Source: Clostridia bacterium (GTDB taxonomy: Bacteria > Bacillota > Clostridia > Acetivibrionales > DTU013). Taken from it: a stretch of 64,000 bases of DNA. Shown here piece after piece: positions 2,183 to 59,866 of this stretch. Where the stretch lies: the NCBI GenBank assembly GCA_036260935.1, contig DATALQ010000013.1, forward strand, positions 3,080-67,079. The letters run 5' to 3'. Numbering within the stretch: position 1 is the stretch's first letter; the number at the start of each line of letters is the position of its first letter. A program made the position numbers and the translations under genes. The notes under the pieces are model-generated. The model had not been told where the DNA came from. It worked only from the letters and a program-made list of their open reading frames with translations, and made no database searches.

Positions 2183-2197
2183 ATAGCACCTCCGCCA

Positions 2198-2770
2198 TTA
2201 TATTTCTCTGTCACAGGTTATAGGTAATGCATGATAGTTCCAACCATCATATCCATCTAATAGTCGATAATTATTATTTTCGTAGCTACCTGGAAAGAAA
2301 ACCAACAGGCGCCCCTTGACTTTCGGAGCAAGTCGGTCGACTAACTCCCTTACCTTTATAAAGCCAAAAACTGACCCAACACCAGACAATGCCACGACAT
2401 CATCACTGCCTGCATTTTGTTGTGTAATCAGATCACAAAACTTATTTTCGACGTAATCACCATATCTCTGAATAATGCTTCCCATTAGCTGTGGCTTTTG
2501 GTAATAACTATTGGCATATTTCAACTCGCCCATCCATTCAGCAAATATGTTCGTAAGATCAAAATGGATCCATCCATGGCCCTGATTTTTAGTTGCTATC
2601 TCAAATTCTCCAATTCTTGCACGAAGCCTCCGTTCCTCTGCCTCAGGATACACTCCAAATATAACTCTTTGGGCAGCAGCAATTTCTCTCCATGGAACAG
2701 CAATGCGATTTTCATAATTCTTCAAAAGTGTCTCAATTTTATTCACGCAGCCATTCCACCTCCTCTGCAC
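2198..2770 (-). CDS. brxB: BREX protein BrxB (DUF1788)
   Basis: 190-aa ORF. C-terminal VVALSGVGSVFGFIKVRELVDRL...LLVFFPGSYENNNYRLL matches my memory of the BrxB signature (LTGVG...FFPG.Y....RLF). The true start may be GTG at 2746 (MNKIETLL), giving an 8-nt overlap with brxA. Confidence 0.8.
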   Translation of the reverse strand: MQRRWNGCVNKIETLLKNYENRIAVPWREIAAAQRVIFGVYPEAEERRLRARIGEFEIATKNQGHGWIHFDLTNIFAEWMGELKYANSYYQKPQLMGSIIQRYGDYVENKFCDLITQQNAGSDDVVALSGVGSVFGFIKVRELVDRLAPKVKGRLLVFFPGSYENNNYRLLDGYDGWNYHALPITCDREI

Positions 2771-3524
2771 TTATTAGATTAGGAAACAGGATTTCCATTA
2801 CATTCCCAATCCGCTTGAATACTATCCAACCTCGCTGCGAGGCTATTTCAGCTAACTCTATCGCTTTTTCGCGAGAGCAATCCATCATCTTCATAAAAAC
2901 TGTTTCAAACAATTCGGGACCTCTATTCCCACATAAATATCCTAAGTAGAGAGCGTACGCAATGGCAGCCGGTTTCGCTTTTGCCCGAGCTCTAGTTTTT
3001 TTTGCCCTTCCTGTTAAGTGACCACTCTTAGTCCAGGTTGAATTTATGTTCTGCGCAACTGATTTCAACGTTGCTATGCTAAATCTTCCTGGTTCAAGGG
3101 CATCGATAAATGATTCCATTGTTTCTCTGTGCAAAACAGCTGTTTCAGGGGTGTCTAGAATAAGTTTGTGTGAACTTTTTAAAAGAGAATCTCTAGTACA
3201 CGCACAAAGTAAAGCAAGAAGCGCTCTTGAATCAGGTTCCCTTTTCCAGAAATAAAGTAAATTCCTGAATAGCGGTAACTGAGGATCTAGCGAATAAAGC
3301 TCAATCAAGTGTCTCGCTGTTAAGGTTTTTGACTTAGTTGACCGCTTACTTAAGCAATTTTCTTCAATAATTACATTTGATATCTGTTTCTCATCAATTG
3401 GATCAGGAACAGCTAAAAGCAATCGTTCAAGTTCCTCAAACATATTCGTTCTTGCTATATGTACACTATTTCTTTGAAAAGTGAATCCGAACTTTTCTAA
3501 TGTATGTTTGTTCAACTTATTCAC
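2739..3524 (-). CDS. brxA: BREX protein BrxA (DUF1819)
   Basis: 261-aa ORF, first gene of the operon. The layout (FSIATLKSVAQNINSTWTKSGHLT ... AAIAYALYLGYLCG ... ASQRGWIVFKRIGNVMEILF) parallels recalled E. coli BrxA blocks. Confidence 0.7.
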   Translation of the reverse strand: MNKLNKHTLEKFGFTFQRNSVHIARTNMFEELERLLLAVPDPIDEKQISNVIIEENCLSKRSTKSKTLTARHLIELYSLDPQLPLFRNLLYFWKREPDSRALLALLCACTRDSLLKSSHKLILDTPETAVLHRETMESFIDALEPGRFSIATLKSVAQNINSTWTKSGHLTGRAKKTRARAKAKPAAIAYALYLGYLCGNRGPELFETVFMKMMDCSREKAIELAEIASQRGWIVFKRIGNVMEILFPNLISAEEVEWLRE

Positions 3525-3802
3525 GCTCTTTTCTGCAAATTAAGAATAGCCCGAAAAATGCAAATTCAGTTTCTTACTTTATTATAATAATTTTATGCAG
3601 GTCTTTCAAAGGCAAGGTAATTATTTTCCTTTTTAACCGCCTAGTATTAGTCATTACCTTATCTCAGGTAAAAAGCTAACGTTTATAACTTCTACAAAAG
3701 GTTACAATATCCTCCATTATTCTCATCACAAAATAACTTTTAACGTAGGTAGCCGAGAATTCCCCCCAATAACAAGTGTCTGTTTTAGTAATTTCCTCGT
3801 CG

Positions 3803-3868
3803 GAAGTCTTTTTTCATTTTTGAGCCCTCAATCAGAGTCGAACTATGACCTCATCCGTACCCATGGAT
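3803..3868 (-). repeat. Diverged direct copy of the tRNA-Thr 3' half plus 19 nt of 3' flank (att-like scar)
   Basis: 3803-3868 aligns with 4081-4147 with a few mismatches or indels (ggaagtcttttttcattt(t)tGagccctcaatcagagtcgaact(g)atgacctcatcc.tacc(c)atggat). There is no matching 5' half, so it cannot fold as a tRNA. Confidence 0.75.
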
Positions 3869-4054
3869 ACTCTGAGGTGTAAAAAGCTGCGCATTACTGC
3901 GTCAAACTGCATGCCTCCGGTGCTCACATATCGCATATGCTCCGCTCCTCGGCATTTGTTTTCCTTGTACTGCTTGCTTTTCCACCACATGCTCTACCGG
4001 CAGAGCGCTTCGATCATAGGGATGTGATGATGAGTCAGCCTCGGAGTAAGATTT

Positions 4055-4101
4055 CCAAAATGAAAAAAGACTTCCTTGTTGGAAGTCTTTTTTCATTTTG
4101 G
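4055..4101 (-). terminator. Perfect 21-bp stem hairpin immediately 3' of tRNA-Thr
   Basis: ccaaaatgaaaaaagacttcc (4055-4075), loop ttgtt, ggaagtcttttttcattttgg (4081-4101). One arm overlaps the CCA end. There is no clean U-tract after the stem on the minus strand, so terminator function is inferred. Confidence 0.45.
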
Positions 4102-4174
4102 AGCCCTCAATCAGAGTCGAACTGATGACCTCATCCTTACCATGGATGCGCTCTGCCAACTGAGCTATGAGGGC
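4099..4174 (-). tRNA. tRNA-Thr (anticodon GGT), CCA encoded
   Basis: Reverse complement GCCCTCA-TA-GCTC-AGTTGGCA-GAGC-G-CATCC-ATGGTAA-GGATG-AGGTC-ATCAG-TTCGACT-CTGAT-TGAGGGC-T-CCA folds as a canonical cloverleaf. Confidence 0.9.
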
Positions 4175-4270
4175 ATTTTGTTTTGCAGGCTGGTGGCTAA
4201 AATAATAATCAGCCGACAGTTACTACTGCTGTTGGCCTGCAGCAGCCTGAGTTTAAGCCGCTGAAGGCTT

Positions 4271-4344
4271 TGGAGCGGGTGAAGGGAATCGAACCCTCAC
4301 AATCAGCTTGGGAAGCTGATGTTCTACCACTGAACTACACCCGC
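4271..4344 (-). tRNA. tRNA-Gly (anticodon CCC), CCA encoded
   Basis: Reverse complement GCGGGTG-TA-GTTC-AGTGGTA-GAAC-A-TCAGC-TTCCCAA-GCTGA-TTGT-GAGGG-TTCGATT-CCCTT-CACCCGC-T-CCA. Confidence 0.9.
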
Positions 4345-4474
4345 AAGTTATTTAGTTCAACGGGCAAGTCGTATTATAACACACTCCAATCCGATTTGTC
4401 CAGTACATAATATTTGCACTTTTAAGCATTTTTTATCCTGTCATTTTATGTATATAAGCTCTTCGGAGTATGTA

Positions 4475-5170
4475 TCAGATCCTGCCTTCTTCGAGGTATT
4501 TCTCGAGCTTTCTCTTCACCCGCTGCAGTGCGTTGTCTATCGATTTGACGTGCCTGCGGAGTTCGACCGAGATTTCCTGGTATGTACGTCCCTGCAGGTA
4601 AAGCGAAAGGACCTGCCATTCCAGATTGCTGAGGATCTCACCCATCTTTACTTCGATCCCCGCAAATTCTTCCCGGTTGATCATCATTTCCTCGGGGTCG
4701 CTTACGCTCTCTTCGCTGATGACGTCGAGCAGCGTGCGGTCGGATTCTTCGTCGAATATCGGCTTGTTGAGGGATACGTAGGAGTTCAGGGGAATATGTT
4801 TCTGCCTGGTGGCTGTCTTGATCGCCGTTATGATCTGCCTCGTGATGCACAACTCCGCAAAGGCCCTGAAGGACGAAAGCTTGTCCCCTCTGAAATCGCG
4901 AATTGCTTTATAAAGGCCGATCATACCTTCCTGTATGATATCCTCTCTGTCGGCTCCAATAAGAAAGTAAGTCCTGGCCTTTGCCCGAACAAAACTTTTA
5001 TATTTGTTGATCAGAAATTCGAGGGCCTGGTCATCACCGGTTTTCGCTTCCCTGATGATTTCCTCGTCACTTGCCGGATTGATACTTATGTGTGCCTCGG
5101 CTTGAGCATTCGGCTTCAAATTTTTGCCCCCCAATATGTACTGTAAATTAAATGCAAAAAGGCAGGTCAA
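4475..5170 (-). CDS. sigH: RNA polymerase sporulation sigma factor SigH
   Basis: Regions 2-4 are recognisable (DREDIIQEGMIGLYKAIRDF, RQKHIPLNSYVSL, LSNLEWQVLSLYLQGRTYQEISVELRRHVKSIDNALQRVKRKL). The real start is probably TTG at 5119, preceded by a GGGGGG SD (about 214 aa). Confidence 0.9.
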   Translation of the reverse strand: MTCLFAFNLQYILGGKNLKPNAQAEAHISINPASDEEIIREAKTGDDQALEFLINKYKSFVRAKARTYFLIGADREDIIQEGMIGLYKAIRDFRGDKLSSFRAFAELCITRQIITAIKTATRQKHIPLNSYVSLNKPIFDEESDRTLLDVISEESVSDPEEMMINREEFAGIEVKMGEILSNLEWQVLSLYLQGRTYQEISVELRRHVKSIDNALQRVKRKLEKYLEEGRI

Positions 5171-5571
5171 CTGGAAAATTACCTGACCTAATTATATGAA
5201 ATGCGCATTTTTATGTCAAGCTGTAACTTGCTCCAGCGCAGTCCTTCAAGGCTCTCCGACAACTCTGGGCACATACGTAACCCGATCTTCCCCGAATGAA
5301 ATGTCTTGGGAAATAATTCCATCTTCTGCCCAGTCTTTTTGAGTTTCCCGCAAACCGTTCCGCCTGATATCTCTTCGGTGTCGCCAGCAACCCTTTTCCG
5401 ATAGAAGCGTTTTCAGGCTGTGACCCCTGCCCTGTGCGTATTTCCCGGCTCACGTACAAATTACTCTATAATATTATCGGCAATTTCATTTTCTTTTGTA
5501 TATCGAATTTCATTATTGACATAAATATTCTTTAATTCATAACAACTCTTTTGATCAACGGCATATACGAA

Positions 5572-7191
5572 TCAGAATTTCTTTATGTTCCTTTGCCTTA
5601 ATATTTCATAAGTGACGATAGCCCCTGCTACGGCAGCATTTAAAGAAGATATCTTCCCCAGCATCGGTATGTTGACGACAAAATCGCAGCTTTCGCGAAC
5701 GAGTTTTCCCATGCCCTCGCCTTCACTGCCAATAACCAGCGCGACAGGACCTGCCAGATCGCTTTCGAAATATGCCTTTTCACCCGTCGAATCCGTTCCT
5801 ACTACCCAGATATTCTCTTTTTTCAGGCTCTCGATGGTTTGAACTATATTTGTTACACGTGCAACCGGTACATATTCTATGGCGCCGGCCGAAGCTTTTG
5901 AAACGGCGGCTGTGAGCCCTATCGCACGCCGCTTCGGGATGATTATTCCATGAACGCCCGCAGCGTTTGCCGTTCTCAGAATGGAGCCGAGGTTGTATGG
6001 ATCGGTGAGTTCGTCAAGTATTATGATGAATGGCGGTCTGCCGCTTTCCTCAGCTATTTGAAGTATCTTTTCCACTTCGACATAATCCTTGGCGGCGGCG
6101 AGCGCAATGACTCCCTGGTGGGCATGTGTGACGGACATCTCGTCGAGCTTTCCCCTGTCGACTTCCTGTATAAGTATATGGTTCTGCCTGGCCATTGCTA
6201 TGATCTGATTTACCGAGCCTTCACGTTCGCCCTTTGAAACAAATATCTTGTTGATACTCCTGCCGGATTTCAGCGCTTCAATGACCGAGTTTCTTCCCTC
6301 CAGTTTGTCGAGGTCCTCCTGCATTCCTGCCTGATCGGCATCCTGCCTGTCAGAACGTGAAAACTTGTCTTCCGATGCGGACTTTTTCGCATTTGTATTA
6401 TACATGGAGGATGTATCGCGGCGGTTGGGTGAAAATCCTTTACGGCCAGGTGAAATCTCATTACGCTCGGATGAAATTTCTCTGTCTTCGGGCGACGCTG
6501 TACGGTAATTGGCGGCTGTACCCCTGTTATCCGATTCCGTATATTTTCTATTATAAGCCGGTGCATCTTTTTTGCTGTAAGCCGATGCGGTATCTTTTCT
6601 GCCGTAGGCTGATGCACCTTCTTTTTTACCGTAGCCCGATACGCCATCTTTCCTGCCGTAGGCCGATGCGCCTTCCTTCCTGCCGTAGCCCGATGCGCCA
6701 TCTTTCCTACCGTAAGCCGGAGCGCCTTCTTTCCTGCCGTATGCCGATGTGCTGTCTTTTCTAGCGTAGCTCGATGCGCCATCTTTCCTGCCGTAAGCCG
6801 GTGCGCCTTCTTTCCGATCGTAGCCCGAGCCGGTGTCTTTCCTGCCGTAGCTCGATGCGCCATCTTTCCTGCCATATGCCGATGCGCCGTCTTTCCTGTC
6901 GTAGCCCGATGCGCCGTCTTTCCTGCCGTAGCCCGATGCTCCGTCTTTCCTGCCGTAAGCCGGAGCCCCACCTGGTGCAGTTGTTCCACGCCTGCCGGGT
7001 GCTTCGCCTGTCCTATCGGACGGGCCGCGACTGCCCCGGGTATTGTCTGAAAACTCTCCAAAATCGTCTCTGCTCTTCGAATAAGAACCTGATCGGCCTT
7101 TTGAGCTTCCTCTGTTTTCGGGTCTACCTGGCTTTTTATCAAAACGACCGCCACGGTCGTTGGAGCCAAAATCGTTTTTCCTTTTTTCCAT
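5572..7191 (-). CDS. rlmB: 23S rRNA (guanosine-2'-O)-methyltransferase RlmB (SpoU/TrmH) with a ~290-aa repeat-rich N-terminal extension
   Basis: The C-terminal 250 aa is canonical RlmB (LEGRNSVIEALKSGR..., ILDELTDPYNLGSILRTANAAG, ALVIGSEGEGM, PMLGKISSLNAAVA). The position between mrnC and sigH is as in Bacillus. Confidence 0.9.
   Translation of the reverse strand: MEKRKNDFGSNDRGGRFDKKPGRPENRGSSKGRSGSYSKSRDDFGEFSDNTRGSRGPSDRTGEAPGRRGTTAPGGAPAYGRKDGASGYGRKDGASGYDRKDGASAYGRKDGASSYGRKDTGSGYDRKEGAPAYGRKDGASSYARKDSTSAYGRKEGAPAYGRKDGASGYGRKEGASAYGRKDGVSGYGKKEGASAYGRKDTASAYSKKDAPAYNRKYTESDNRGTAANYRTASPEDREISSERNEISPGRKGFSPNRRDTSSMYNTNAKKSASEDKFSRSDRQDADQAGMQEDLDKLEGRNSVIEALKSGRSINKIFVSKGEREGSVNQIIAMARQNHILIQEVDRGKLDEMSVTHAHQGVIALAAAKDYVEVEKILQIAEESGRPPFIIILDELTDPYNLGSILRTANAAGVHGIIIPKRRAIGLTAAVSKASAGAIEYVPVARVTNIVQTIESLKKENIWVVGTDSTGEKAYFESDLAGPVALVIGSEGEGMGKLVRESCDFVVNIPMLGKISSLNAAVAGAIVTYEILRQRNIKKF
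6549..6972 (-). repeat. About 15 tandem 27-bp units encoding (A/S)xYGRKDGAS inside rlmB
   Basis: Peptide run AYGRKDGASGYGRKDGASGYDRKDGASAYGRKDGASSYGRKD... All three minus and plus frames stay open here, which explains the spurious overlapping ORFs in the track. Confidence 0.9.
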
Positions 7192-7199
7192 GCGGTTAT

Positions 7200-7650
7200 A
7201 TACCCTTTCTGTTTTCTCCGATTTATTTCGGTTCTTCGGTTATTTTGGTTCTTGCGGTTCTACGGATCTTTCGGTTATTTTGGGTCCTTCTGGTTCTTTC
7301 TGGTTCTATCCGGTTGTTCGGATTCATTCGGTTATTTCATTTCTCTCTGGTTCATTTGATTCTTCCGGTTCTAATGGTTTTCCCCGATTCAATCAAGGTT
7401 CATTTCGGCTAATATGGTTGCTTCTGTTTTTCCGATTCTGTCTGGCTCTAGCCGGCTCTCGAATGCTTACAGTTATTTCATTTCTCACCAGTTCTTTCGG
7501 CTCTTCTGGTTCCTTCCGGCTCTAACCGATTATCGAATACTTCCGGTTATTCCATACTTCGCCGATTCCTTCCGGGTTTCCCGGTTCTTTCAGTTCTTTC
7601 AGATTTCTCGGATACTTTCGGATTACTTCCTATTTTCTTATTCTTGCAAG
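7200..7650. repeat. Degenerate 9-bp satellite (plus TTCGGTTCT, minus AGAACCGAA), non-coding, between mrnC and rlmB
   Basis: Runs such as ttcggttct tcggttatt ttggttctt gcggttcta cggatcttt cggttattt tgggtcctt ctggttctt repeat over about 450 bp. The track shows no minus-strand ORF of 60 aa or more. The plus ORFs here are F/S/G-rich artefacts. Confidence 0.8.
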
Positions 7651-7659
7651 TTTTATGGT

Positions 7660-8118
7660 TTATATGCTGCCTTTATCGCTTTGATCCCGGGCGCCCTGAC
7701 TTTGTCCCAGCGAGATCCTCAATACTTCCTGCAACCTCGTATAATCGGCCTTCAAATAAAGATAGCCCAGCAGCGACTCGAAGCCTGTGGCATATTTATA
7801 ATCGGTAACGTCTGCGTTTTTGGGAATAGTGCCTGATTTTGCGTTCCTCCCGCGCCTGACAACATCCTGCTCTTCAGGCGTCAGAACCTCCATCAGGCTG
7901 TGGATGGTGTCGGATTGTGCTTTGGCTTTGACGAAGGAGATGGACTGCTTATGGAGCTTATGTACCGGCGCGTTGCCCTTACTGATCAGATAGGTGCGGA
8001 TATAGAGCTCATAGACCGCGTCACCCGCATAAGCAAGCACAAGGGGGGAATATGTCTTCACGTCTTCCTGCTTGACGTTCAAATTACTGCGAATTGCACC
8101 GAATATACTTTCATCCAT
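7660..8118 (-). CDS. mrnC: Mini-ribonuclease 3 (Mini-III, MrnC/YazC)
   Basis: LVLAYAGDAVYELYIRTYL...SFVKAKAQS...RRGRNAKSGTIPKNA...YKYATGFESLLGYLYL is the Mini-III signature. It is syntenic with rlmB. Confidence 0.85.
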   Translation of the reverse strand: MDESIFGAIRSNLNVKQEDVKTYSPLVLAYAGDAVYELYIRTYLISKGNAPVHKLHKQSISFVKAKAQSDTIHSLMEVLTPEEQDVVRRGRNAKSGTIPKNADVTDYKYATGFESLLGYLYLKADYTRLQEVLRISLGQSQGARDQSDKGSI

Positions 8119-8345
8119 TCTATAAAATACCTCTGGTGAGTATTATATCCTATTTGTTGTCCAATGTGAATATGATTTGCACCTGACACACAATCACAAA
8201 CAACAATTGCTCACAGTAAACATATCCCCCGTTTTGCCTGCGGTAAAGCATGAGTAAAATCAAGCCTTTCAAGTACCTGCTTGCCTTTTTCTCTTACAAG
8301 CATATCACCAATTGGCTCTGCCCGTTTTAAGTATGACCGGTATGT

Positions 8346-9797
8346 TCAGTCGCCCCATTTCAAGACGGGATTGCGTGCTGCTTTTACCTCGTCGAGCCTT
8401 GATACTACGGTAGTGTAGGGAGCATTTCTGACTTTGTCCGGTTCCTCTTCGGCTTCCCTTGCGATACTTATGAGAGTATCCGCAAAGCTGTCCAGCGTTT
8501 CCCTGCTTTCGGTCTCCGTGGGTTCTATCATTATCGCCTCATGTACGATCATCGGGAAATAGACCGTCGGCGGATGATAACCGAAATCCAGAAGCCTCTT
8601 TGCAATATCGAGAGTTCGCACGCCCTTTTCCGCCTGTGCCTCGCCTGACAATACGAATTCATGCTTGCATATCCTGTCGTAAGGCACAGTGAAATACTGC
8701 TTCAGCCTGCCGAACAGGTAATTGGCGTTGAGTACCGCCGTTTCGGACACTTCTCTCAGACCGTCGGGGCCCATTGTTCTGATATAAGCGTATGCCTTCA
8801 ATATGACTCCGAAATTGCCATAGAACGATTTCACCCTCCCGATGGAAAGCGGGTGATCATAGTCGAGTAAATATTTGTTATCCTTCAATTCAACAGTGGG
8901 CCGCGGCAGGAAGGGCACGAGTTCGTTCCTTACACCGACGGGTCCGGAGCCCGGCCCTCCGCCGCCGTGGGGCGTGGCGAACGTCTTGTGCAGATTGAGA
9001 TGGACAACATCGAAACCCATGTCTCCGGGTCTGCATTTGCCCAATATGGCATTGGCGTTGGCGCCGTCATAATAAAGCAGTCCTCCTGCCCCATGAACGA
9101 TTTCGGCTATCCTTGCGATGTTTTCGTCAAACAGCCCGAGCGTATTGGGGTTGGTGAGCATCAGGCCCGCGGTGTCCGGACCGACAGCGGAGGCTAAAGC
9201 TTCGAGGTCTACCCCGCCTCTCGCATCTGATTTGACTTCTACCGTTTCAAAGCCTGCCAGTGCTGCAGACGCCGGATTTGTGCCATGCGCGGAATCCGGG
9301 ATAATGATTTTTCTACGGCCGGTATCGCCCCGACTCTCGTGATATGCCTTTATGATCATCATTCCCGTCAGCTCTCCGTGAGCGCCGGCCGCAGGCTGGA
9401 GACAGAAACGCTCCATACCCGTGATGGCAGAGAGCATCCTGTCCATCTCGTACAGCACCTGCAGGCAGCCCTGCACGGTATCCTCCTGCTGATAGGGATG
9501 AACGCTCCTGAAGCCGTCAAGGTTTGCAATATCCTCGTCGATCTTGGGATTGTATTTCATAGTACAGGAGCCCAGAGGGTAAAAACCCGAATCGACTCCG
9601 TGGTTACGATGGGCCAGATGGGTAAAATGCCTCGCTATGTCGACCTCGCTGACTTCCGGAAGTTCGGTCGCATCGGCTCTGATATATTCTCCGGGTACCA
9701 TTGTTTCCGCAGGCTTCACGGGCACGTCGCATGCAGGCAGGCTGTACGCCTTTCTCCCGGTACGGCTGAGTTCGAAGATAATTTTGTTCTCGTTCAT
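8346..9797 (-). CDS. gcvPB: Glycine dehydrogenase (decarboxylating) subunit 2
   Basis: 483 aa. [15 protein letters not shown] and the PLP site [18 protein letters not shown]. Last gene of the gcv operon. Confidence 0.95.
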
Positions 9798-52534: not shown

Positions 52535-53461
52535 ATGGACGGCACAATTTTGTTGATGGATTATTCGGCCTATGAGAGGCAGAAAATCCGCCATATCATA
52601 GAAAAAATCGGATATTTCAATATTATCGAGGTTGGGGACAATAACCAGTTCAAGCTGTTGAATACGGATATTGCCGATCTCAAGCTTATAATAATGGATC
52701 TTGCTTTTCCTGCGGAAACCGACGGTTTTGCAGCGCTGTCGAAATTGCGCTCGGCACCCGTCAGGACTGTTCCCATAATCATCGTCACCCAGGCCGACAG
52801 GTCAGACCTTAAGTCCGCGGCTCTGCGCTATGGCGTCAATGATTATATTGTCAAGCCATATCAGCTTAAAAGACTCGAAAGCTCAATAAACAGCCTCGTC
52901 AAGACAGAAAAAACATTCCGATACGATACCAGTGAAATAAATGATATCAGAATGTCGTTCGACAGCTATGTGGAGCGCGAGATCAAATATTCCAAGCGTA
53001 CCGGTGCTCCGCTGTCGCTTATACTTATCACGACTCTGCAGCTGTATTCAGCGGCAGGTTCGGAAAAAAGCATAACTGACGAATATAAAGCTTCGGTCTT
53101 CAACATAGCGGCAAAAAAGGCCCGGGAAGCACTGCGAGCCACAGACACGATCGTTCTGAACCATGGCAGGGACATAATAATCGTACTGCCTTGTACCGAC
53201 GAAACCGGGGCCCGTCTGGTTTCAGAGAAGATAAAAGCTTATACGGAGCCCGAATTCGAAAAAATCAATTCAAACAGGAATGAATATATTTATCCTGTCT
53301 ATGTGGCGTATCCGAAGGAGGGCGACAGTTTCCAGGCATTGATGCAGACAGCCTTCAGGAAGATCGCCGATAAAGAAATGCTGGAAAAGATCACATCGAT
53401 CCCGTCGGACACACGCAAATATGCGGACAAGAGCTACAATCGTTACCGCAAGTGGTGGTAG
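52535..53461 (+). CDS. Response-regulator receiver fused to a degenerate GGDEF domain
   Basis: Receiver LKLIIMDLAFP ... VTQA ... YIVKP. The C-domain aligns to the GGDEF fold, but the active-site position reads NHGRD. Confidence 0.75.
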   Translation: MDGTILLMDYSAYERQKIRHIIEKIGYFNIIEVGDNNQFKLLNTDIADLKLIIMDLAFPAETDGFAALSKLRSAPVRTVPIIIVTQADRSDLKSAALRYGVNDYIVKPYQLKRLESSINSLVKTEKTFRYDTSEINDIRMSFDSYVEREIKYSKRTGAPLSLILITTLQLYSAAGSEKSITDEYKASVFNIAAKKAREALRATDTIVLNHGRDIIIVLPCTDETGARLVSEKIKAYTEPEFEKINSNRNEYIYPVYVAYPKEGDSFQALMQTAFRKIADKEMLEKITSIPSDTRKYADKSYNRYRKWW

Positions 53462-53466
53462 TCGGC

Positions 53467-56118
53467 TTACCTCCCATAAAACCAGTCTGCGAATTCGTCG
53501 ATCTCACCAATCAAGTTTTCATATCTCGGTTTTATCTTTAAAGCTTCAGTTTCTTGTACTTTTTCGTTTTCTAATGTCTCTACATGAAATTGCCGAATAA
53601 GCGTTTTGATTTCAGCGGCTTTTTCAGCGATCTCTCTCTGTAGTTCAGGGCCGGCTGGTTCGAGGGGAAGCTGTTCGAGCATGGCTTTGTTTATTGCCAG
53701 GTATCCTCCGGCCAGATGCTTTTCATGGAATTGTTCGCCGATATACCCCGCCATGAATCTGCTGTTGAGAAGGCCTAGCAAGAAAAGCGGATCGTATCCG
53801 CCAAAACCATATAATGCATATGCGCCTACGCCCAACGCAAGCGGATCCTGGCAGTAGTCGGCTTCCAACTCCCTGGTCAGGCCCGCAATAACGATCTTTT
53901 CATCACACCATAGCTTCCATTTGCTTTGGGCGATATCTCTGTTCTTGGATACAAAGGCCTTTTTATAGGTTTTTCCCATATATCTGATATTCTCGAACCC
54001 GACGCAGTATTTATCGATCGAACCGCTTACGACGAAGGGAATTGCGCCGTCTATGCGCTCTTCCGTGATACATGCTGCAATGGCTCTTGCCTGGAAGCCC
54101 GCCGTTCCCGACGCAAACCTGAGGCCGTGTTCCTTGAAAGTTCCATAGGTTTTGAAGCTTCGGGTCTTTCTGATAAACGTACAGCTGTGGTACCCCGAAC
54201 GCGTGCAGCCCTGGCACTCCTCGGAAGCCATGCCGTATTCCGCGTATTCACCGCCTGGTGCGCCTTTATTGCCTGCGACTATAACAGGATAAACTCCTGC
54301 ACTATGGAAAATATCGGCGTCGGAAACGCTGTAGCTTTGTCTCAGGCCATTCTCTTTTAGATATTCGAGCACCGGTGAGGCATAATGCGAGGACAGCAGG
54401 CTGTTTGGGACTATCCAGCAGTAAACGCCTTTATCGTTGGTTTGTCGTATCCCCTCCAGCAAAAATGCGGCGTATATGTCGAAGGATCCTCTCAGCAAAG
54501 GGTGCATCGACTTGAGCGAACGCCTCAGCCCGGCATATCTGGCCCCTTCTATGGCTGATATGTACGGCGGGTTGCCTATGACTATATCGAAGCCGCCCTT
54601 CTTTTTAACAGTTTCCATAAAGAGCGGGCTGTTATCGAATATCTCAGTACTGCGGCCCAGGCTGCTGCCGGATATAATATTTCCGAAAATGTAGGCTGCC
54701 AGAGGTTCCTGAGGGTTTGGGAGTTCCCCAGGACCCGGGAGTTCCGGGAGTCTCGCTAGGTCTGGGAGTTCCTGAGGGTTCGGGAGTACCGGGTGGTCCG
54801 ACAACTCCCGGAGACCATTTTCGTATGCTGAGGCGAGGGCGCACCAAAGCCTGAGTCTGGTTATCCTGACAGCATCCTCGTCGATATCCATTGCATATAT
54901 ACAGTTCACTACAGTGTAAAGCATCAGGCGGTATGCGTTACTTTCGGACAAGTCTGCCGGAGAACGGGTTGAGACAGCAGCACGGACCCTCACTATTTCC
55001 TTCAGTATACCGAGTACGAAAGCACCGGAGCCTGCTGCTGGGTCGAATATCCTTACCTGCCGGAGAGCGTCATCTATCTTTCCGAAGCTATGTAGAACAG
55101 ATGGAGAAAGCCCGGAAACAGATCCGTTTGCCAAATCATCTCCGCCATCTCCAGAAAGGCAGTCGCTATCCAGAAACGAACGGCAGTCCTCATAAGGTAT
55201 CTCCGCAGCGTTGGATATATAATGGGCGAGGCTTTCACGACACATGAAGCTGACGATTTCCGAAGGAGTATAAAAGGTACCCTTATTTTTCCTGACGTTT
55301 GTATCCAATCTGCTTTCAAAGAGATCCCCCAGCATCTCGGGATCTATTGCCAGTATCCGGTCATACGGCTCGCTTTCGCTCATTCTGAAACCCGGCAGCT
55401 TTACAAGGGCCGAAAAATCAAGGGTGTTCGTATATCTCCGGTTGAATTTCTTCAATACTTCCTTTTTGAATGAATTCAAACTGAACGCTTTTTCAAGGTC
55501 CTTAATAGACCTCTGTTTCTTTATAAGCAAAAGCTTCAACAGTAGTTTCCGGGCCGCAGTTCTTGTGATACCCGTTATTAGCGATACTTCGGGCCCGATC
55601 TCCTTTACTGCTTCAACTTCGGACCCGACGTTCTTTACTGCTGTAGCTTCGGACCCGATGTCCTTTACTGCCACAGCTTCAGTTCCGCCGCCCCCGCCAA
55701 GGATGTACGAAACCCTGCTCAGCTTGAAGTTGTTCAGGGCACGGGTATCGCCAGGTGCTTTATTGTCAGGATTAAGCCTGATCAATGACAGCTTCCATTC
55801 CTTTACACCGTCTATGTAGAATGCTGCAATGGCGGCCTCGCACCTGTTAGTTACAAGAACCTCTTCTATCTGTTTTCTTTCCAGTGAACCATATCGGACA
55901 TCATTGGTCTTTCGCCCGGAATTGACCGCCAGAATTGCCACAGCCGTACCTTCACTGCATATGAATCTGTTTAGGACGGCGAAATCAGATGCGAATCCCG
56001 TGGTACGAAGGAATTCGCCGTTATCGGCCGACTCCGGGCAGTAAAATAATCTGGTAGAAAATTTTATAAATCTGCCAAGATCGAAAGGTTTTTCAACGAC
56101 CTCATCAAGAAGTTTCAT
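53467..56118 (-). CDS. Eco57I/TaqI-type (gamma-class) N6-adenine DNA methyltransferase, ~883 aa, no partner nuclease gene
   Basis: Motif I VRIFDPAAGSGAFVLG (about 55021-55050), motif IV IVIGNPPYI (about 54562-54573) and a TaqI-C-like specificity region. Start set to ATG 56118 behind GGGGGTCGGGG, 20 nt after the dut stop. The track's 989-aa version overlaps dut. Confidence 0.8.
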   Translation of the reverse strand: MKLLDEVVEKPFDLGRFIKFSTRLFYCPESADNGEFLRTTGFASDFAVLNRFICSEGTAVAILAVNSGRKTNDVRYGSLERKQIEEVLVTNRCEAAIAAFYIDGVKEWKLSLIRLNPDNKAPGDTRALNNFKLSRVSYILGGGGGTEAVAVKDIGSEATAVKNVGSEVEAVKEIGPEVSLITGITRTAARKLLLKLLLIKKQRSIKDLEKAFSLNSFKKEVLKKFNRRYTNTLDFSALVKLPGFRMSESEPYDRILAIDPEMLGDLFESRLDTNVRKNKGTFYTPSEIVSFMCRESLAHYISNAAEIPYEDCRSFLDSDCLSGDGGDDLANGSVSGLSPSVLHSFGKIDDALRQVRIFDPAAGSGAFVLGILKEIVRVRAAVSTRSPADLSESNAYRLMLYTVVNCIYAMDIDEDAVRITRLRLWCALASAYENGLRELSDHPVLPNPQELPDLARLPELPGPGELPNPQEPLAAYIFGNIISGSSLGRSTEIFDNSPLFMETVKKKGGFDIVIGNPPYISAIEGARYAGLRRSLKSMHPLLRGSFDIYAAFLLEGIRQTNDKGVYCWIVPNSLLSSHYASPVLEYLKENGLRQSYSVSDADIFHSAGVYPVIVAGNKGAPGGEYAEYGMASEECQGCTRSGYHSCTFIRKTRSFKTYGTFKEHGLRFASGTAGFQARAIAACITEERIDGAIPFVVSGSIDKYCVGFENIRYMGKTYKKAFVSKNRDIAQSKWKLWCDEKIVIAGLTRELEADYCQDPLALGVGAYALYGFGGYDPLFLLGLLNSRFMAGYIGEQFHEKHLAGGYLAINKAMLEQLPLEPAGPELQREIAEKAAEIKTLIRQFHVETLENEKVQETEALKIKPRYENLIGEIDEFADWFYGR

Positions 56119-56137
56119 CCCCGACCCCCATAACCGT

Positions 56138-56758
56138 TCAGCCGCGGCCCGAATGTCCGAAACCGCCGCCCCTGTCAGTTCCAATCCCGCGCGGATCAGG
56201 ATGTTGAATGAAGTTTGCGCGTTTATATTCATTGAATACCATCTGCGCAATTCTGTCGCCCTTCTTAATATATATGGTGCCATATGGATTGCCAAGCCCG
56301 TCGATGTAGATCTTTTGTCCGGCGACGGCCAGCGATGCGGTGGGCAGAACCTTTCCCTCCCGCGCGAGATACTCCAGCAGTTCGATCTCCCTGTAGTTCC
56401 GGTACAGGCCCTCCAATATACCCGGATCAGCCGCAATCTGATACGGCAGGTTGGCTATGTTGTACGTATTTTGCAATATGACTCCAACCGTATCCCTGTA
56501 ATCGCTGTCTATAGTGCCTGGGCCATTGGGTATCCTGAGCTCTGTTTTCAGGGATAACCCGCTCCTGGGTCTTATTTGCGCCTCATATTCAGGGTCTATC
56601 GCCATGCTGAAATCGAGCGGCATTATTTTGGTTTCACCGGGTCTGACAGCCATGTCCTGTGTGGCGAAAAGGTCGCAGCCCGCGGAATTGGTCGAGGCGT
56701 AAAGCGGAATTCTCCCCTCTCCTCCGACCTTGATATATACGTTGATTTCATTTTTCAT
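56138..56758 (-). CDS. dut: dUTP diphosphatase (trimeric type) with a ~55-60-aa internal insertion
   Basis: Motifs SAGCDL, RPRSGL, GTIDSDYRD, GDRIAQMVF, GGGFGHSG. The extra segment lies between motifs III and IV. Confidence 0.85.
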   Translation of the reverse strand: MKNEINVYIKVGGEGRIPLYASTNSAGCDLFATQDMAVRPGETKIMPLDFSMAIDPEYEAQIRPRSGLSLKTELRIPNGPGTIDSDYRDTVGVILQNTYNIANLPYQIAADPGILEGLYRNYREIELLEYLAREGKVLPTASLAVAGQKIYIDGLGNPYGTIYIKKGDRIAQMVFNEYKRANFIQHPDPRGIGTDRGGGFGHSGRG

Positions 56759-56862: not shown

Positions 56863-59688
56863 TCATACCCCTCTGAAATAATGCCCCTTCGTATAACCCG
56901 GTCCCGGCTGCATGTTCGCCACACGTTTACCCGCCTGTCTGTCTTCGGCTTCCTGCCGTGCCGCCCTGTAAAGCCTGATAAGTTCCTTTATCCGCTCAGG
57001 CCCCTCATCCCATATATAAAGCCTTAGCATTCCTACTCCGGAATCGGTAAGATTGTTTACGATATCGGGTACAAAAAGTACGTCTGAATTCAGTATTATA
57101 CTCCTGCAATCAGTCCTGTCACAAAGCACAGGAAACTCAGAGCCTTTTCTGTCCCTGAGGCTGTATCCCTCCTTACTGCAAGCGCCGCTGCAACCGCGGC
57201 CGGCAGTGTACCCTCCTTCGATACATCCCACGGGGCAATATTCGCTTATCATCAACGGTATTCTGCCGTAAACCGCGGCCTCCGCGACAATATGCCTACC
57301 GTTGTCGGCACTCACAGCAGCCAAGGCCCTGCCGATGCAGGTCGCCTGCTGAAGCGTCAGTTCCGCGGAGAGTGCAATGCTGTCAAGCCCATACTTTGCC
57401 GCCTCGGTAAACGAATCGGTATTGAAAATGTTGAGTGAAATGTCTCCCGCCAGCCTAAGTCCGGACGGAACGAATTTACGTATCGTGCCTATATTTCCGC
57501 ATAGTACGCCCTCTATCAAGGATTTGGGTCCTATTCCCACCCCGGCTTCGGGAGCATCGTCCGGATTCCGTTCGTCTTCGTATCCGTCGTCCGGATTCCG
57601 TTCATCTTCGTATCCGTCATCCGAATACCGTCCACCTTCGTGTCCGCCGCCTGTTATACGGCTCAGAAACCTTTCGATCAATTTATCATAATTGCCTCTC
57701 GTGATTGCGGGCAGCCAGGCAAAAACCTCGGTCCCTGCTGCCTGCAGAGCTTTGGCGGTATTTTGGAAGCCTGGCTTTCCAATAGAATTAAAAGGCAGAT
57801 AGACTCTGTCGGCCCCTAAAGAAGAATATTCCAGTTCCTTGTCCCACTTGTAAAAGTAAAGGGATAAAGCAGGACGACCGACCGAAATTTGTCCTGACCG
57901 TACCTGCGTTATATGCGGCAACGAACATCCCACACAGCCGGCAGGCCGCGCCGCACCGTCGCTGTCGATCGCCTGATTGACGCTCTCCAGGCTGCGCCTG
58001 TCTGGATAGCGTTCTGCCCTAATTTTATAGAGCTCAACGAGCGCCTGTCTCCTGACCTCGTTTATTTCACTTACCGGGATTGTCAGTCCAGAGGCGATTT
58101 CAATCTTCAGTTCCGTAAAAACAAAAGGCGTCGATCCTGTCCTGTATAGCTGCTCCCTCAGTCTCTCCTCCGAAAGAGGCTTGTTCAAAGCTTCTTCGGG
58201 ATTCATAGTTCCCTTGGCTGTGGCGCTATGTCTCCCGGAGTCCCATACACGGAGAATAAGCGGCCGTCCGTGCTGTAAAACCGCCTCGCCGGCAATTTTC
58301 ACACGCTTTACAAGCTTACCCGAGAAGGTTTCACGGGCTTGTTTGTTCAACGTTATATCCAAAGTCTTATAAACTCCGAAGCCAGGTGCGATCCTGCCCT
58401 TGAATTCCCCGATCACCGCAAGGTCGCCCTTTTTAGCCATTTTTGCGTTCTGCTTCCCAAGCGTTATAGAGGTAATCGTACCTCCGGGGCTGTCAGTGCC
58501 CCCGGTCCATATCTCTACACCGTCTCCCATGTGCAGATCCCATTCCAGCCTTATCGTCACAGTTTTCGTACGGCTGTCATACGCCTGTACTTTCCCAAGA
58601 TAGATACCGCTGTTATTGGGTTTTTCATAGCTCATCATGTCGGCGCCTGTTTTCCCCATCATATAACCTGTGGAAAAACCGCCCCTGTTGTATATCTGAA
58701 GGATATCGTGCCTGTCATTTTCCTCCACACCGGGCAGAGGCCCATTTCCGGCGCCTTTATGCCCGATGGCAAGATCCAGGTACTTTCTGTACAGCCGGAC
58801 AACAGTAGCTACATATTCGGGGCTCTTCATCCTGCCCTCGATTTTAAGCGAACGTATGCCAGAATCTGCGATATCAGCCATGAACTCGAGCGTACACATG
58901 TCTTTAGGGCTCATAAGGTATCCGGAGCGTTCTGTTAAGGTGCGATTCCGGTATTCATTTATCCGCGTGCCGCCCGAACTACCTTCGCCCGAACTGTCCC
59001 CGCCGGATCTGCCACCGCCCGGCCTACTACCGGGTAAAGCCGCCAACTGGTAGGGCAGTCTGCAGGGCTGCGCGCATTTTCCGCGGTTGCCGCTTCTGCC
59101 GCCTATCATGCTGCTCATGAGGCACTGCCCGGAGTAGCAGACGCAGAGCGCTCCGTGCACAAAGACCTCTATTTCGAGTTTCGTATTATGCGCTATATCG
59201 GAAATTTCCTTCAAGGGTAGTTCTCTTGCAAGCACAGCCCTGCTGAAGCCCATGTCTTCGAGCGTACGCACTCCCGCCAGGTCATAGACCGTCATCTGTG
59301 TACTGCCGTGCAGGGGCACATCCGGCATCACTTTTCTGAGAGCGGCGGCAAGACCCAGATCCTGTACAATAATACCGTCGATACCTGCGTACCTCGCTTC
59401 AGCGGCAAATTCGACCGCCTGTTTTATTTCATCGTCGGAAACGAGAGTATTCAGCGTCAGATAAAGGCTAACGCCGCGCGCGTGGGCATAAAGCAGCTCT
59501 TCGCGGAGCATTTCGGCGTCGAAATTGTCCGCATTCTCCCTTGCGTTAAAAGACCTGCCGCCAAGGTAGACCGCATCCGCTCCGTTTTCCACTGCTGCAT
59601 GCAGAGCGTCGCGGTTTCCCGCAGGAGCAAGAAGTTCGATCATTTTTCCGGATTTGTTCAATTCGTTATATGTCCCGGGTCTGTCCAT
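56863..59688 (-). CDS. Large U32-family peptidase (PrtC/collagenase-like) with low-complexity insertions
   Basis: ELLAPAGN start region and the U32 signature EVFVHGALCVCYSGQCLMSSMIGGRSGNRGKCAQPCR. Confidence 0.85.
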   Translation of the reverse strand: MDRPGTYNELNKSGKMIELLAPAGNRDALHAAVENGADAVYLGGRSFNARENADNFDAEMLREELLYAHARGVSLYLTLNTLVSDDEIKQAVEFAAEARYAGIDGIIVQDLGLAAALRKVMPDVPLHGSTQMTVYDLAGVRTLEDMGFSRAVLARELPLKEISDIAHNTKLEIEVFVHGALCVCYSGQCLMSSMIGGRSGNRGKCAQPCRLPYQLAALPGSRPGGGRSGGDSSGEGSSGGTRINEYRNRTLTERSGYLMSPKDMCTLEFMADIADSGIRSLKIEGRMKSPEYVATVVRLYRKYLDLAIGHKGAGNGPLPGVEENDRHDILQIYNRGGFSTGYMMGKTGADMMSYEKPNNSGIYLGKVQAYDSRTKTVTIRLEWDLHMGDGVEIWTGGTDSPGGTITSITLGKQNAKMAKKGDLAVIGEFKGRIAPGFGVYKTLDITLNKQARETFSGKLVKRVKIAGEAVLQHGRPLILRVWDSGRHSATAKGTMNPEEALNKPLSEERLREQLYRTGSTPFVFTELKIEIASGLTIPVSEINEVRRQALVELYKIRAERYPDRRSLESVNQAIDSDGAARPAGCVGCSLPHITQVRSGQISVGRPALSLYFYKWDKELEYSSLGADRVYLPFNSIGKPGFQNTAKALQAAGTEVFAWLPAITRGNYDKLIERFLSRITGGGHEGGRYSDDGYEDERNPDDGYEDERNPDDAPEAGVGIGPKSLIEGVLCGNIGTIRKFVPSGLRLAGDISLNIFNTDSFTEAAKYGLDSIALSAELTLQQATCIGRALAAVSADNGRHIVAEAAVYGRIPLMISEYCPVGCIEGGYTAGRGCSGACSKEGYSLRDRKGSEFPVLCDRTDCRSIILNSDVLFVPDIVNNLTDSGVGMLRLYIWDEGPERIKELIRLYRAARQEAEDRQAGKRVANMQPGPGYTKGHYFRGV

Positions 59689-59831: not shown

Positions 59832-59866
59832 TAAAAATCGCTCCGCAGGTCCTCCCGCGAAGCGAT
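59832..59866 (-). terminator. Intrinsic terminator after zapA
   Basis: Minus strand atcgcttcgc-loop-gcggagcgat followed by TTTTT. Confidence 0.6.

Follow-up and report, generated by a model that had tools for sequence, protein, structure and literature searches.

A 64,000-nucleotide (nt) stretch of DNA from a Clostridia bacterium, referred to as the window throughout, was analysed with regard to the dUTPase gene dut and a large gene for an adenine-specific DNA methyltransferase (MTase) that lies directly behind it. An earlier note on this DNA had offered several readings of the MTase gene. Among these, the reading favoured here is that of a domesticated or orphan epigenetic methylase that shares a transcript with dut in a housekeeping context, on the basis of a conserved and vertically inherited adjacency, the lack of a nuclease domain or partner, and CamA of Clostridioides difficile as the best structural match. 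The positions given for dut and the MTase gene in that note were exact, and both open reading frames (ORFs) were confirmed. The locus comprises the following features (aa, amino acids):

52535..53461 (+), convergent receiver/GGDEF-like gene, which ends 5 nt from the MTase stop codon and forms the downstream border of the insertion site
53467..56118 (-), solitary gamma-class N6-adenine DNA MTase (Eco57I/TaqI type), 883 aa (ORF, Pfam, AlphaFold2 [AF2] model)
56119..56137 (-), dut-MTase spacer of 19 nt with a G-rich ribosome-binding site (GGGGG..GGGG)
56138..56758 (-), dut, coding for a trimeric-type dUTPase of 206 aa with an insert of about 55 aa (ORF and Pfam/NCBIfam)
56863..59688 (-), gene for a U32-family peptidase of 941 aa, the probable first gene of a U32-dut-MTase unit (Pfam Peptidase_U32, 3e-89)
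59837..59866 (-), strong intrinsic-terminator-like hairpin after zapA and upstream of the U32 gene (13-bp stem, 8 GC pairs, T-run)

The MTase ORF extends on the minus strand from an ATG at 56118 to a stop codon at 53467-53469. This ATG is considered the true start because eight aligned orthologues open with the same conserved N-terminus (MK[LF]L[DN]E..E.PFD) with an invariant M1. A longer ORF starting with TTG at 56436 overlaps dut, has no support from orthologues and was rejected. The MTase gene has its own Shine-Dalgarno sequence in the form of a G-rich run, as described previously, although the distance to the dut stop codon is 19 nt and not 20 nt. The dut product was recognized by Pfam dUTPase (2.7e-22) and by the NCBIfam dut model (110 bits; cut-off 103). 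A terminator scan revealed no terminator-like sites between U32, dut and the MTase gene, which agrees with the terminator-free dut-MTase interval claimed before. Transcription of the MTase gene would occur within a U32-dut-MTase unit, of which it would be the last gene, and its translation is probably coupled to that of dut. The flanking genes are of the housekeeping type, with NfeD, flotillin, ZapA and U32 encoded on one side and the receiver/GGDEF-like protein, PFK, a sulfatase, NUDIX and UPF0029 on the other. The earlier note had likewise placed the U32 peptidase, zapA and a response regulator in the flanks and had seen no restriction partner there; its statement of a core-like composition also holds, as the GC content of the locus (46-52%) is similar to that of the rest of the window.

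The MTase protein is organized into a compact fold at aa 1-145 (1-141 in the AF2 model), a disordered repeat linker at aa 146-179, a short helical region, the MTase domain and a target-recognition domain (TRD). The corresponding segments of the gene are:

55684..56118 (-), N-terminal domain, aa 1-145, with the element order a-a-b-b-b-a-b-b-b (profile, AF2)
55587..55680 (-), 30-nt tandem repeat with 3.1 copies, coding for a disordered linker at aa ~146-177 with AVKDIGSEAT-like units (Tandem Repeats Finder [TRF], score 125)
55345..55581 (-), helical remnant, aa 180-258, the residue of a helical spacer (spacing between AFS motif and motif X)
54259..55344 (-), MTase catalytic domain, aa 259-620, with motifs X, I and IV (Pfam, motifs, substitution rates)
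54735..54793 (-), insert in the catalytic domain encoded by a Pro-rich 9-nt tandem repeat (TRF)
53653..54144 (-), TaqI_C-like TRD, aa 659-822 (Pfam TaqI_C, fold)

The catalytic domain matched Pfam Eco57I (PF07669) with 88.8 bits (cut-off 25.3; 5.9e-25) and MmeI_Mtase with 27.5 bits (cut-off 27). Motif X (GTFYTP, aa 280-285), motif I (FDPAAGSGAF, aa 358-367; nt 55018-55047) and the NPPY motif IV (aa 516-519; nt 54562-54573) follow each other in the order X-I-IV, which is that of the gamma class. These catalytic motifs are invariant in 15 and in 60 homologues, and residues G280, Y283, T284, D359, G363 and N516-Y519 are invariant in 60 homologues. Motif I, NPPY and the TaqI-C-like TRD had all been recognized in the earlier note; the TRD is backed by its fold though the Pfam TaqI_C score of 21.6 bits (2.7e-4) falls below the cut-off of 26.5. 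The AF2 model of the full-length protein reached a mean predicted local distance difference test score (pLDDT) of 82.9 and a predicted template modelling score (pTM) of 0.82, with pLDDT above 90 over most of aa 660-820 and below 50 at residues 145-175 of the linker. The best match in the PDB was CamA (profile 3e-66; Foldseek E 2.7e-20, TM 0.65 on target), followed by M.BseCI, PglX/BrxX, MmeI and M.TaqI; BpuSI was also among the matches. In the Foldseek comparison of the AF2 model, which covered about 700 columns, the TRD fold aligned with the TRDs of CamA, M.BseCI and M.TaqI. Across the dut-linked MTases, 48 of 164 TRD columns are invariant. The gene product is probably an active, stand-alone N6-adenine DNA MTase.

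Both repeat arrays, the Pro-rich one at 54735-54793 and the 30-nt one, are in-frame, are modelled by AF2 as disordered linkers and occur in the genome of the window alone; the 30-nt repeat is absent from the orthologues. The tandem repeats in these linkers are recent. Low-complexity inserts also occur in genes neighbouring the MTase gene.

Conservation of the dut-MTase adjacency across relatives, which the earlier note had named as a check, was confirmed by searching the whole genomes of 40 relatives and then scanning GTDB species genomes. The order ZapA-U32-dut-MTase was found in nine genomes in the first search and at 17 loci in the second, the two sets overlapping, and MTase orthologues occupy the same locus in metagenome-assembled genomes (MAGs) of Hungateiclostridiaceae from at least 17 species and several genera. 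The dut-linked MTase gene was always present in this order, followed by a convergent gene for a response regulator or a NUDIX protein. In 15 species the dut stop codon is either separated from the MTase start by 6-21 nt containing a GGAGG/GGGGG box or overlaps it (ATGA/TTGA). Such a tight junction looks like an operon signature with possible translational coupling, and its conservation would favour selected co-expression of dut and the MTase gene. A single ancestral insertion plus vertical descent is enough by itself to account for the adjacency. A functional link between nucleotide-pool sanitation and DNA modification, also considered in the earlier note, may or may not exist.

In six relatives (G004, G006, G010, G013, G020 and G021) the site is empty, and dut directly abuts the response-regulator gene. 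Unrelated cargo is present at the dut site in G008 and G017, and a C-terminal MTase remnant of 86 aa is left between dut and the regulator gene in G011 (locus L054). Trees of the 16 dut-linked MTases were calculated with IQ-TREE in the 'quick' setting. All 16 form one clade (support by SH-like approximate likelihood ratio test [SH-aLRT] 99), within which ten short forms are monophyletic (100). A tree of concatenated U32, dut and ZapA sequences from the same loci has an internal topology equal to that of the MTase tree, with the shared groupings (L029, L041) and (window, L027, (L026, L028)) and the same branching of the short forms. In this tree of neighbouring genes, the remnant-bearing G011 is sister to the empty-site G021, and about four changes explain the presence and absence of the MTase gene. 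The simplest history would consist of a single capture of the MTase gene downstream of dut, in an early ancestor of most Hungateiclostridiaceae, after which it would have been inherited vertically and lost several times.

Conservation at the genus level has been reported for 9% of restriction-modification (R-M) enzymes versus 57% of orphan MTases (PMC4752239), orphans in general being kept, unlike R-M MTases, at the levels of genus and family, and by this criterion the conservation of the dut-linked MTase across related species fits orphans and not R-M MTases. Conserved orphans of the Dam/CcrM type (PMC4752239) resemble the window MTase in being solitary, conserved above the genus level, equipped with a conserved specificity domain and located in a housekeeping operon; they differ from it in MTase class and evolutionary origin.

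Further, the N-terminal part of the protein was examined. About 260 aa precede the MTase fold, which begins near residue 259. The earlier note had correctly described this region as one of unknown function but had overestimated its length (about 340 aa), as it counted up to motif I. A profile of the N-terminal domain (N-domain) was built from 13 sequences and searched against 1.84 billion proteins. It retrieved 1,816 cluster representatives, 1,068 of them at E<=1e-10, and the domain was always located at the extreme N-terminus; full-length matches bearing the domain were mostly about 1,000-1,250 aa long. The window MTase scored 1.3e-38 against this profile. Conserved positions over 89 full-length representatives are R77, R81, R109, K134 and R135, plus A96, F100, W108, S111 and G141, while an invariant acidic residue was not present in the domain across these representatives. 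The conserved Arg/Lys pattern suggests a nucleic-acid-binding or protein-docking module and not a PD-(D/E)xK site. The window protein departs from the family consensus at several positions (G77, E80, K109, S134, G144, E147, A148). Its N-domain is a degenerate copy of a widespread N-terminal MTase domain, with no recognisable nuclease.

The earlier note had found no convincing PD...(D/E)xK, and this was upheld: no signal for such a nuclease in the MTase N-terminus was obtained by orthologue alignment, family conservation, N-domain fold search or Pfam/NCBIfam/PADLOC. A conserved D...(D/E)xK was found neither in the MTase orthologues nor in the 89 family representatives. The segment DGVKEWK, mentioned earlier as a possible ExK, must be discarded since residue 107 is E, K, I or M among the orthologues. 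An AF2 model of the N-domain by itself (pLDDT 75.8) gave no significant fold match in the PDB by Foldseek; the best matches, DHH pyrophosphatases (E 9e-3, TM 0.34-0.39), are too weak to interpret.

The window protein also lacks a large part of the helical spacer. Motif X follows the AFS motif at a distance of 69 aa in the window protein and three same-genus orthologues, versus 189-282 aa elsewhere, which corresponds to a deletion of about 120-210 aa relative to other family members, KGWL and xLNGGLF included. The KGWL and xLNGGLF helical module is absent from all 16 dut-linked MTases and present in most other family members. No Pfam match to MmeI_hel or DUF7814 was detected in the window MTase. 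Moreover, ten of the 16 dut-linked MTases are devoid of the N-domain entirely as a result of one monophyletic deletion.

These findings bear on the possibility, raised in the earlier note, of a single-polypeptide type IIG/IIL R-M enzyme of the Eco57I/MmeI kind, in which the N-terminal 145 aa would be a divergent nuclease. The layout of N-domain, helical region, gamma-class MTase and TaqI_C-like TRD is similar, and Eco57I, MmeI and BpuSI share the domain order, the Eco57I/MmeI_Mtase domains and a TaqI_C-like TRD with the window MTase. In addition, MmeI and BpuSI were among the PDB matches, and the best PADLOC models were 'REase_MTase_IIG' (1e-28), though these matched the MTase part alone (aa 244-621). 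In contrast to Eco57I, MmeI and BpuSI, the window MTase has neither a PD-(D/E)xK domain nor an MmeI-type helical spacer. The clade and the 89 representatives are without a conserved acidic or ExK motif, their conserved residues being Arg and Lys; the N-domain model has no nuclease fold match; the ten orthologues lacking the N-domain are still under purifying selection; intact relatives employ a separate PLD nuclease-helicase (see below); and R-M enzymes do not typically combine vertical inheritance with conservation of the TRD (PMC4752239). The type IIG/IIL reading, for which no PD-(D/E)xK call was obtained, is therefore unsupported and very improbable.

Family members outside the dut-linked clade also carry this N-domain. 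At six loci in three phyla, such MTase genes adjoin a gene for a protein of 1,090-1,194 aa with PLDc_2 (HKD nuclease), SNF2/ResIII and Helicase_C domains, referred to as the PLD-SNF2 partner. Its best PADLOC model is the candidate 'HKD+Snf2' C3a139. The partner gene is located directly upstream of the MTase gene in three Bacteroidales loci (L043, L044, L049) and likewise in G015 (locus L024), whose genome belongs to the same family as that of the window. In the metagenome contig L087 the two genes overlap, and in a cyanobacterium (L082) the partner gene lies 1.7 kb downstream of the MTase gene, past toxin-antitoxin-like genes. The L024 locus (contig C109 of G015, 939-8665) holds a complete pair of PLD-SNF2 helicase (1,090 aa) and MTase (1,125 aa) adjoining an AbiEii toxin gene; the same genome is without an MTase gene at its dut site. 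A brief mention of a PLD-SNF2/MTase arrangement exists for Cj0031-like type II R-M genes (PMC9881135). The nuclease of this family is hence provided in trans, which explains an MTase without a nuclease motif of its own.

The window MTase shares the N-domain, the MTase core and the TRD type with the MTases of these two-gene loci, but it has no partner, has lost the helical spacer and conserved basic residues, and resides in a housekeeping operon instead of a defence-island or mobile context. No homologue of the PLD-SNF2 partner was detected by tblastn in the window's own genome, which is 88% complete. All nine genomes searched that carry a dut-linked MTase were devoid of one as well, and several of these have a completeness of 97-99%. 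Overall identity of the window MTase to Bacteroidales family members is 40%. With the Bacteroidales MTases L043, L044 and L046 it shares 46-52% identity in the TRD, versus only 17-23% with other family members, and this points to a Bacteroidales-type lineage as the likely source of the captured gene. No partner gene was found beside L046.

The MTase might still serve a functional restriction or defence system as its modification subunit, with the nuclease, either of another family or belonging to the BREX system about 50 kb away, encoded elsewhere. Retention of the N-domain (ratio of nonsynonymous to synonymous substitution rates [dN/dS] ~0.38) in two of three sub-clades, the 88% completeness of the genome and the occurrence of a BREX locus (BrxB, 2198-2770) in the same window speak for this arrangement. 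The BREX system, however, has its own PglX, and a PLD-SNF2 homologue is present in none of the nine dut-linked genomes. Candidate partner contacts, i.e., the family-invariant Arg/Lys residues and the helical spacer, are eroded or deleted, and forms without the N-domain cannot dock in the ancestral way. We regard a nuclease elsewhere as improbable.

The BREX island occupies positions 2-3524 at the start of the window and includes BrxB (2198-2770; Pfam 4.8e-10) and a large AAA-type ORF (2-2182) that runs off the window end. As the earlier note had anticipated, its PglX gene is located off-window: an Eco57I-domain, PglX-like gene was found at the very start of the contig (C20:135-800), truncated by the contig end, and is the only other Eco57I-type gene in the genome. 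A link between the MTase and the BREX island was rejected since the island has its own PglX. PglX/BrxX (PDB 8C45, 9EWZ) shares the MTase superfamily fold with the window MTase; in contrast, the window MTase scored only 33.4 and 31.8 bits against the NCBIfam PglX models with cut-offs of 400 and 900, respectively, and no PglZ, BrxC or BrxL adjoins it, the neighbours being U32, dut and the response regulator. BREX-related 'BR' systems (PMC12839542) were discarded as a different family because their MTases carry DUF1156 and their helicases TUDOR/REase. A type I HsdM-like N6_Mtase (Pfam 6.2e-65) is encoded on another contig of the same genome (G000, C30:104761-105684), so that BREX is accompanied in this organism by at least one conventional R-M system.

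To assess selection on the individual domains, dN/dS was calculated according to Nei-Gojobori, a simple pairwise estimate, for pairs with unsaturated dS. Values were 0.12-0.28 for the catalytic domain, 0.10-0.16 for the TRD, 0.19-0.48 for the C-terminal tail and 0.38 for the N-terminal region, the latter from the sole unsaturated long-form pair (L026/L028); dut gave 0.05-0.11 for comparison. Mean pairwise identity followed a similar gradient, with 0.65 for the core (aa 481-620), 0.64 for the TRD, 0.37-0.41 for the N-domain, 0.22-0.39 for the helical remnant and 0.17-0.29 for three inserts, compared to 0.62 for U32. By these estimates, the catalytic core and the TRD are under strong purifying selection. 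Conservation of the TRD does not by itself discriminate an orphan enzyme, as the TRDs of Bacteroidales family members are also well conserved among themselves (0.62-0.73).

That the MTase is a functionless, decaying relic (a pseudogene in progress), or else methylates a substrate other than DNA, is barely credible in view of these data. Several losses have indeed occurred, one of which left a remnant, and the MTase evolves faster than its neighbours and has gained low-complexity inserts. Yet none of the 16 species used for the tree has a disrupted reading frame, every catalytic motif is invariant, dN/dS on core and TRD is 0.10-0.28, and the fold, including the TRD, superposes on those of DNA-bound CamA, M.BseCI and M.TaqI.

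CamA (CD2758; PDB 7LNI/7LT5; PMC8187626) is an orphan, CAAAAA-specific N6-adenine MTase of C. difficile with a sporulation phenotype (PMC8187626). Like the window MTase it combines a gamma-class core with a C-terminal TRD of the TaqI type, and both are solitary, lineage-conserved and clostridial. CamA differs in having 577 aa and no extra N-terminal domain; it is species-specific, whereas the window MTase spans several genera. Identity between the two amounts to only 14-16%, which indicates a shared architecture but not a shared motif or role, and no transfer of specificity is justified.

Taken together, the window MTase is probably a domesticated orphan N6-methyladenine (m6A) DNA MTase. Its gene would be the final cistron of the U32-dut-MTase unit, and the protein would descend from the modification/specificity subunit of a PLD-SNF2 restriction-like system. 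The ancestral subunit would have relied on a separate PLD(HKD)-nuclease/SNF2-helicase for cutting, and this partner would later have been lost. Erosion appears to affect those parts that are dispensable for methylation (N-terminal domain, helical spacer, linkers and C-terminal tail), while the S-adenosylmethionine-binding/catalytic core and the TRD are retained under strong purifying selection. Most likely the enzyme methylates one fixed sequence of the asymmetric type chromosome-wide, like Dam, CcrM and CamA. Its role in the host might be epigenetic regulation, marking in replication or repair, or standing protection against related restriction systems, with no restriction activity.

Several observations weigh against parts of this scenario. 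Promoter-like hexamer pairs are present inside U32 (57122-57095) and dut (56295-56267), and the MTase gene could also own a separate promoter; the promoter scan yielded 12 sites, barely above the 8.0 +/- 2.8 expected by chance from shuffled sequence. Solitary family members exist elsewhere too (P0017, L022, L052). The captured ancestral gene may have been solitary already, and the loss of a partner is proposed on grounds of parsimony. With a genome completeness of 88%, an unlinked nuclease partner of a different family could exist. Finally, selection on the N-domain (dN/dS ~0.38) seems relaxed yet not neutral, and the domain may keep a function.

One of the solitary members, L052 (3255-8727; Bacillota MAG SO_2017_LW2_29), has an intact N-domain, and its gene immediately follows dnaX-ybaB-recR at a distance of about 150 nt from recR. 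A member of this MTase family is thereby embedded behind DNA-metabolism genes for a second time.

With respect to the reason for retention, the MTase could be kept mainly as a 'vaccine' that, through methylation of the motif of circulating PLD-SNF2/MTase systems, shields the chromosome from post-segregational killing and eases DNA exchange, with no regulatory function. Complete two-gene systems do circulate in the same bacterial family (G015/L024, beside the AbiEii gene), and two of the three Bacteroidales members with 46-52% TRD identity are partner-linked (L043, L044). TRD identity to the complete same-family system L024 is a mere 23%, however, and long vertical retention with tight coupling to the dut operon fits a host function at least equally well. 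This explanation, which we hold to be unlikely, is compatible with a domesticated orphan MTase as regards the identity of the protein and differs solely on why it was retained.

A bolder proposal is that the dut-MTase junction is functional and not historical. Dosage of the methylase would be tied to dUTPase and replication-associated expression, and adenine methylation would mark newly replicated or repaired DNA, serving as a Dam-like strand or timing signal or as a CamA-like developmental switch in a family without Dam. L052 might then represent a second, independent case, and the graded erosion of the N-domain (intact, degenerate, deleted) might map the surface on which the PLD-SNF2 partner docks in a widespread, as yet uncharacterised defence system. 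We consider this proposal rather doubtful.

Lineage-conserved orphan MTases are the main candidates for epigenetic regulation in bacteria, and few are known in Clostridia beyond CamA. The dut-linked MTase is kept across several genera of uncultured Hungateiclostridiaceae from anaerobic digesters and rumen. If its origin as a defence subunit and the stepwise loss of non-catalytic modules are traced correctly, it offers a clean natural example of the domestication of a restriction-type methylase. It also directs attention to the N-terminal domain that accompanies PLD-SNF2 nuclease-helicase partners, which is widespread (about 1,800 cluster representatives) but unstudied. Orphan methylases as a kind are already known, and the dut-linked MTase adds a further example; its practical value will stay modest as long as no methylome has revealed the motif.

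A number of minor observations were made on the genes around the MTase. The insert of about 55 aa in the dut product (window 56279-56467, aa ~99-160) parts the two halves matched by Pfam. Insert-bearing dut genes of about 206 codons are kept in at least nine further genomes of the family (eight genera), with the MTase present or not, and the insert is shorter or different in G004, G012, G016 and G023. A connection of the insert with the MTase was rejected as it is equally present in MTase-free family members. In many relatives U32 and dut are just 24-45 nt apart. For the U32-dut spacer of the window, a sporulation-type promoter (CATACAAA) was considered and dropped, being unconserved in relatives, where spacer length varies from 24 to 284 nt. 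In six loci (L030, L032, L034, L036, L038 and L039), the U32-dut intergenic region is filled by multiple copies of a short repeat, (A)GAACTGTCCCC / GGGGACAGTYC. This repeat is REP-like, expands the spacer to 100-284 nt and is absent from the window's own spacer. Finally, the dut-adjacent receiver/GGDEF-like gene of G015 (contig C70, locus L076, 4812-6573) is split into parts coding for aa 1-131 and 128-308 by about 1.7 kb of DNA, which is probably an insertion sequence.

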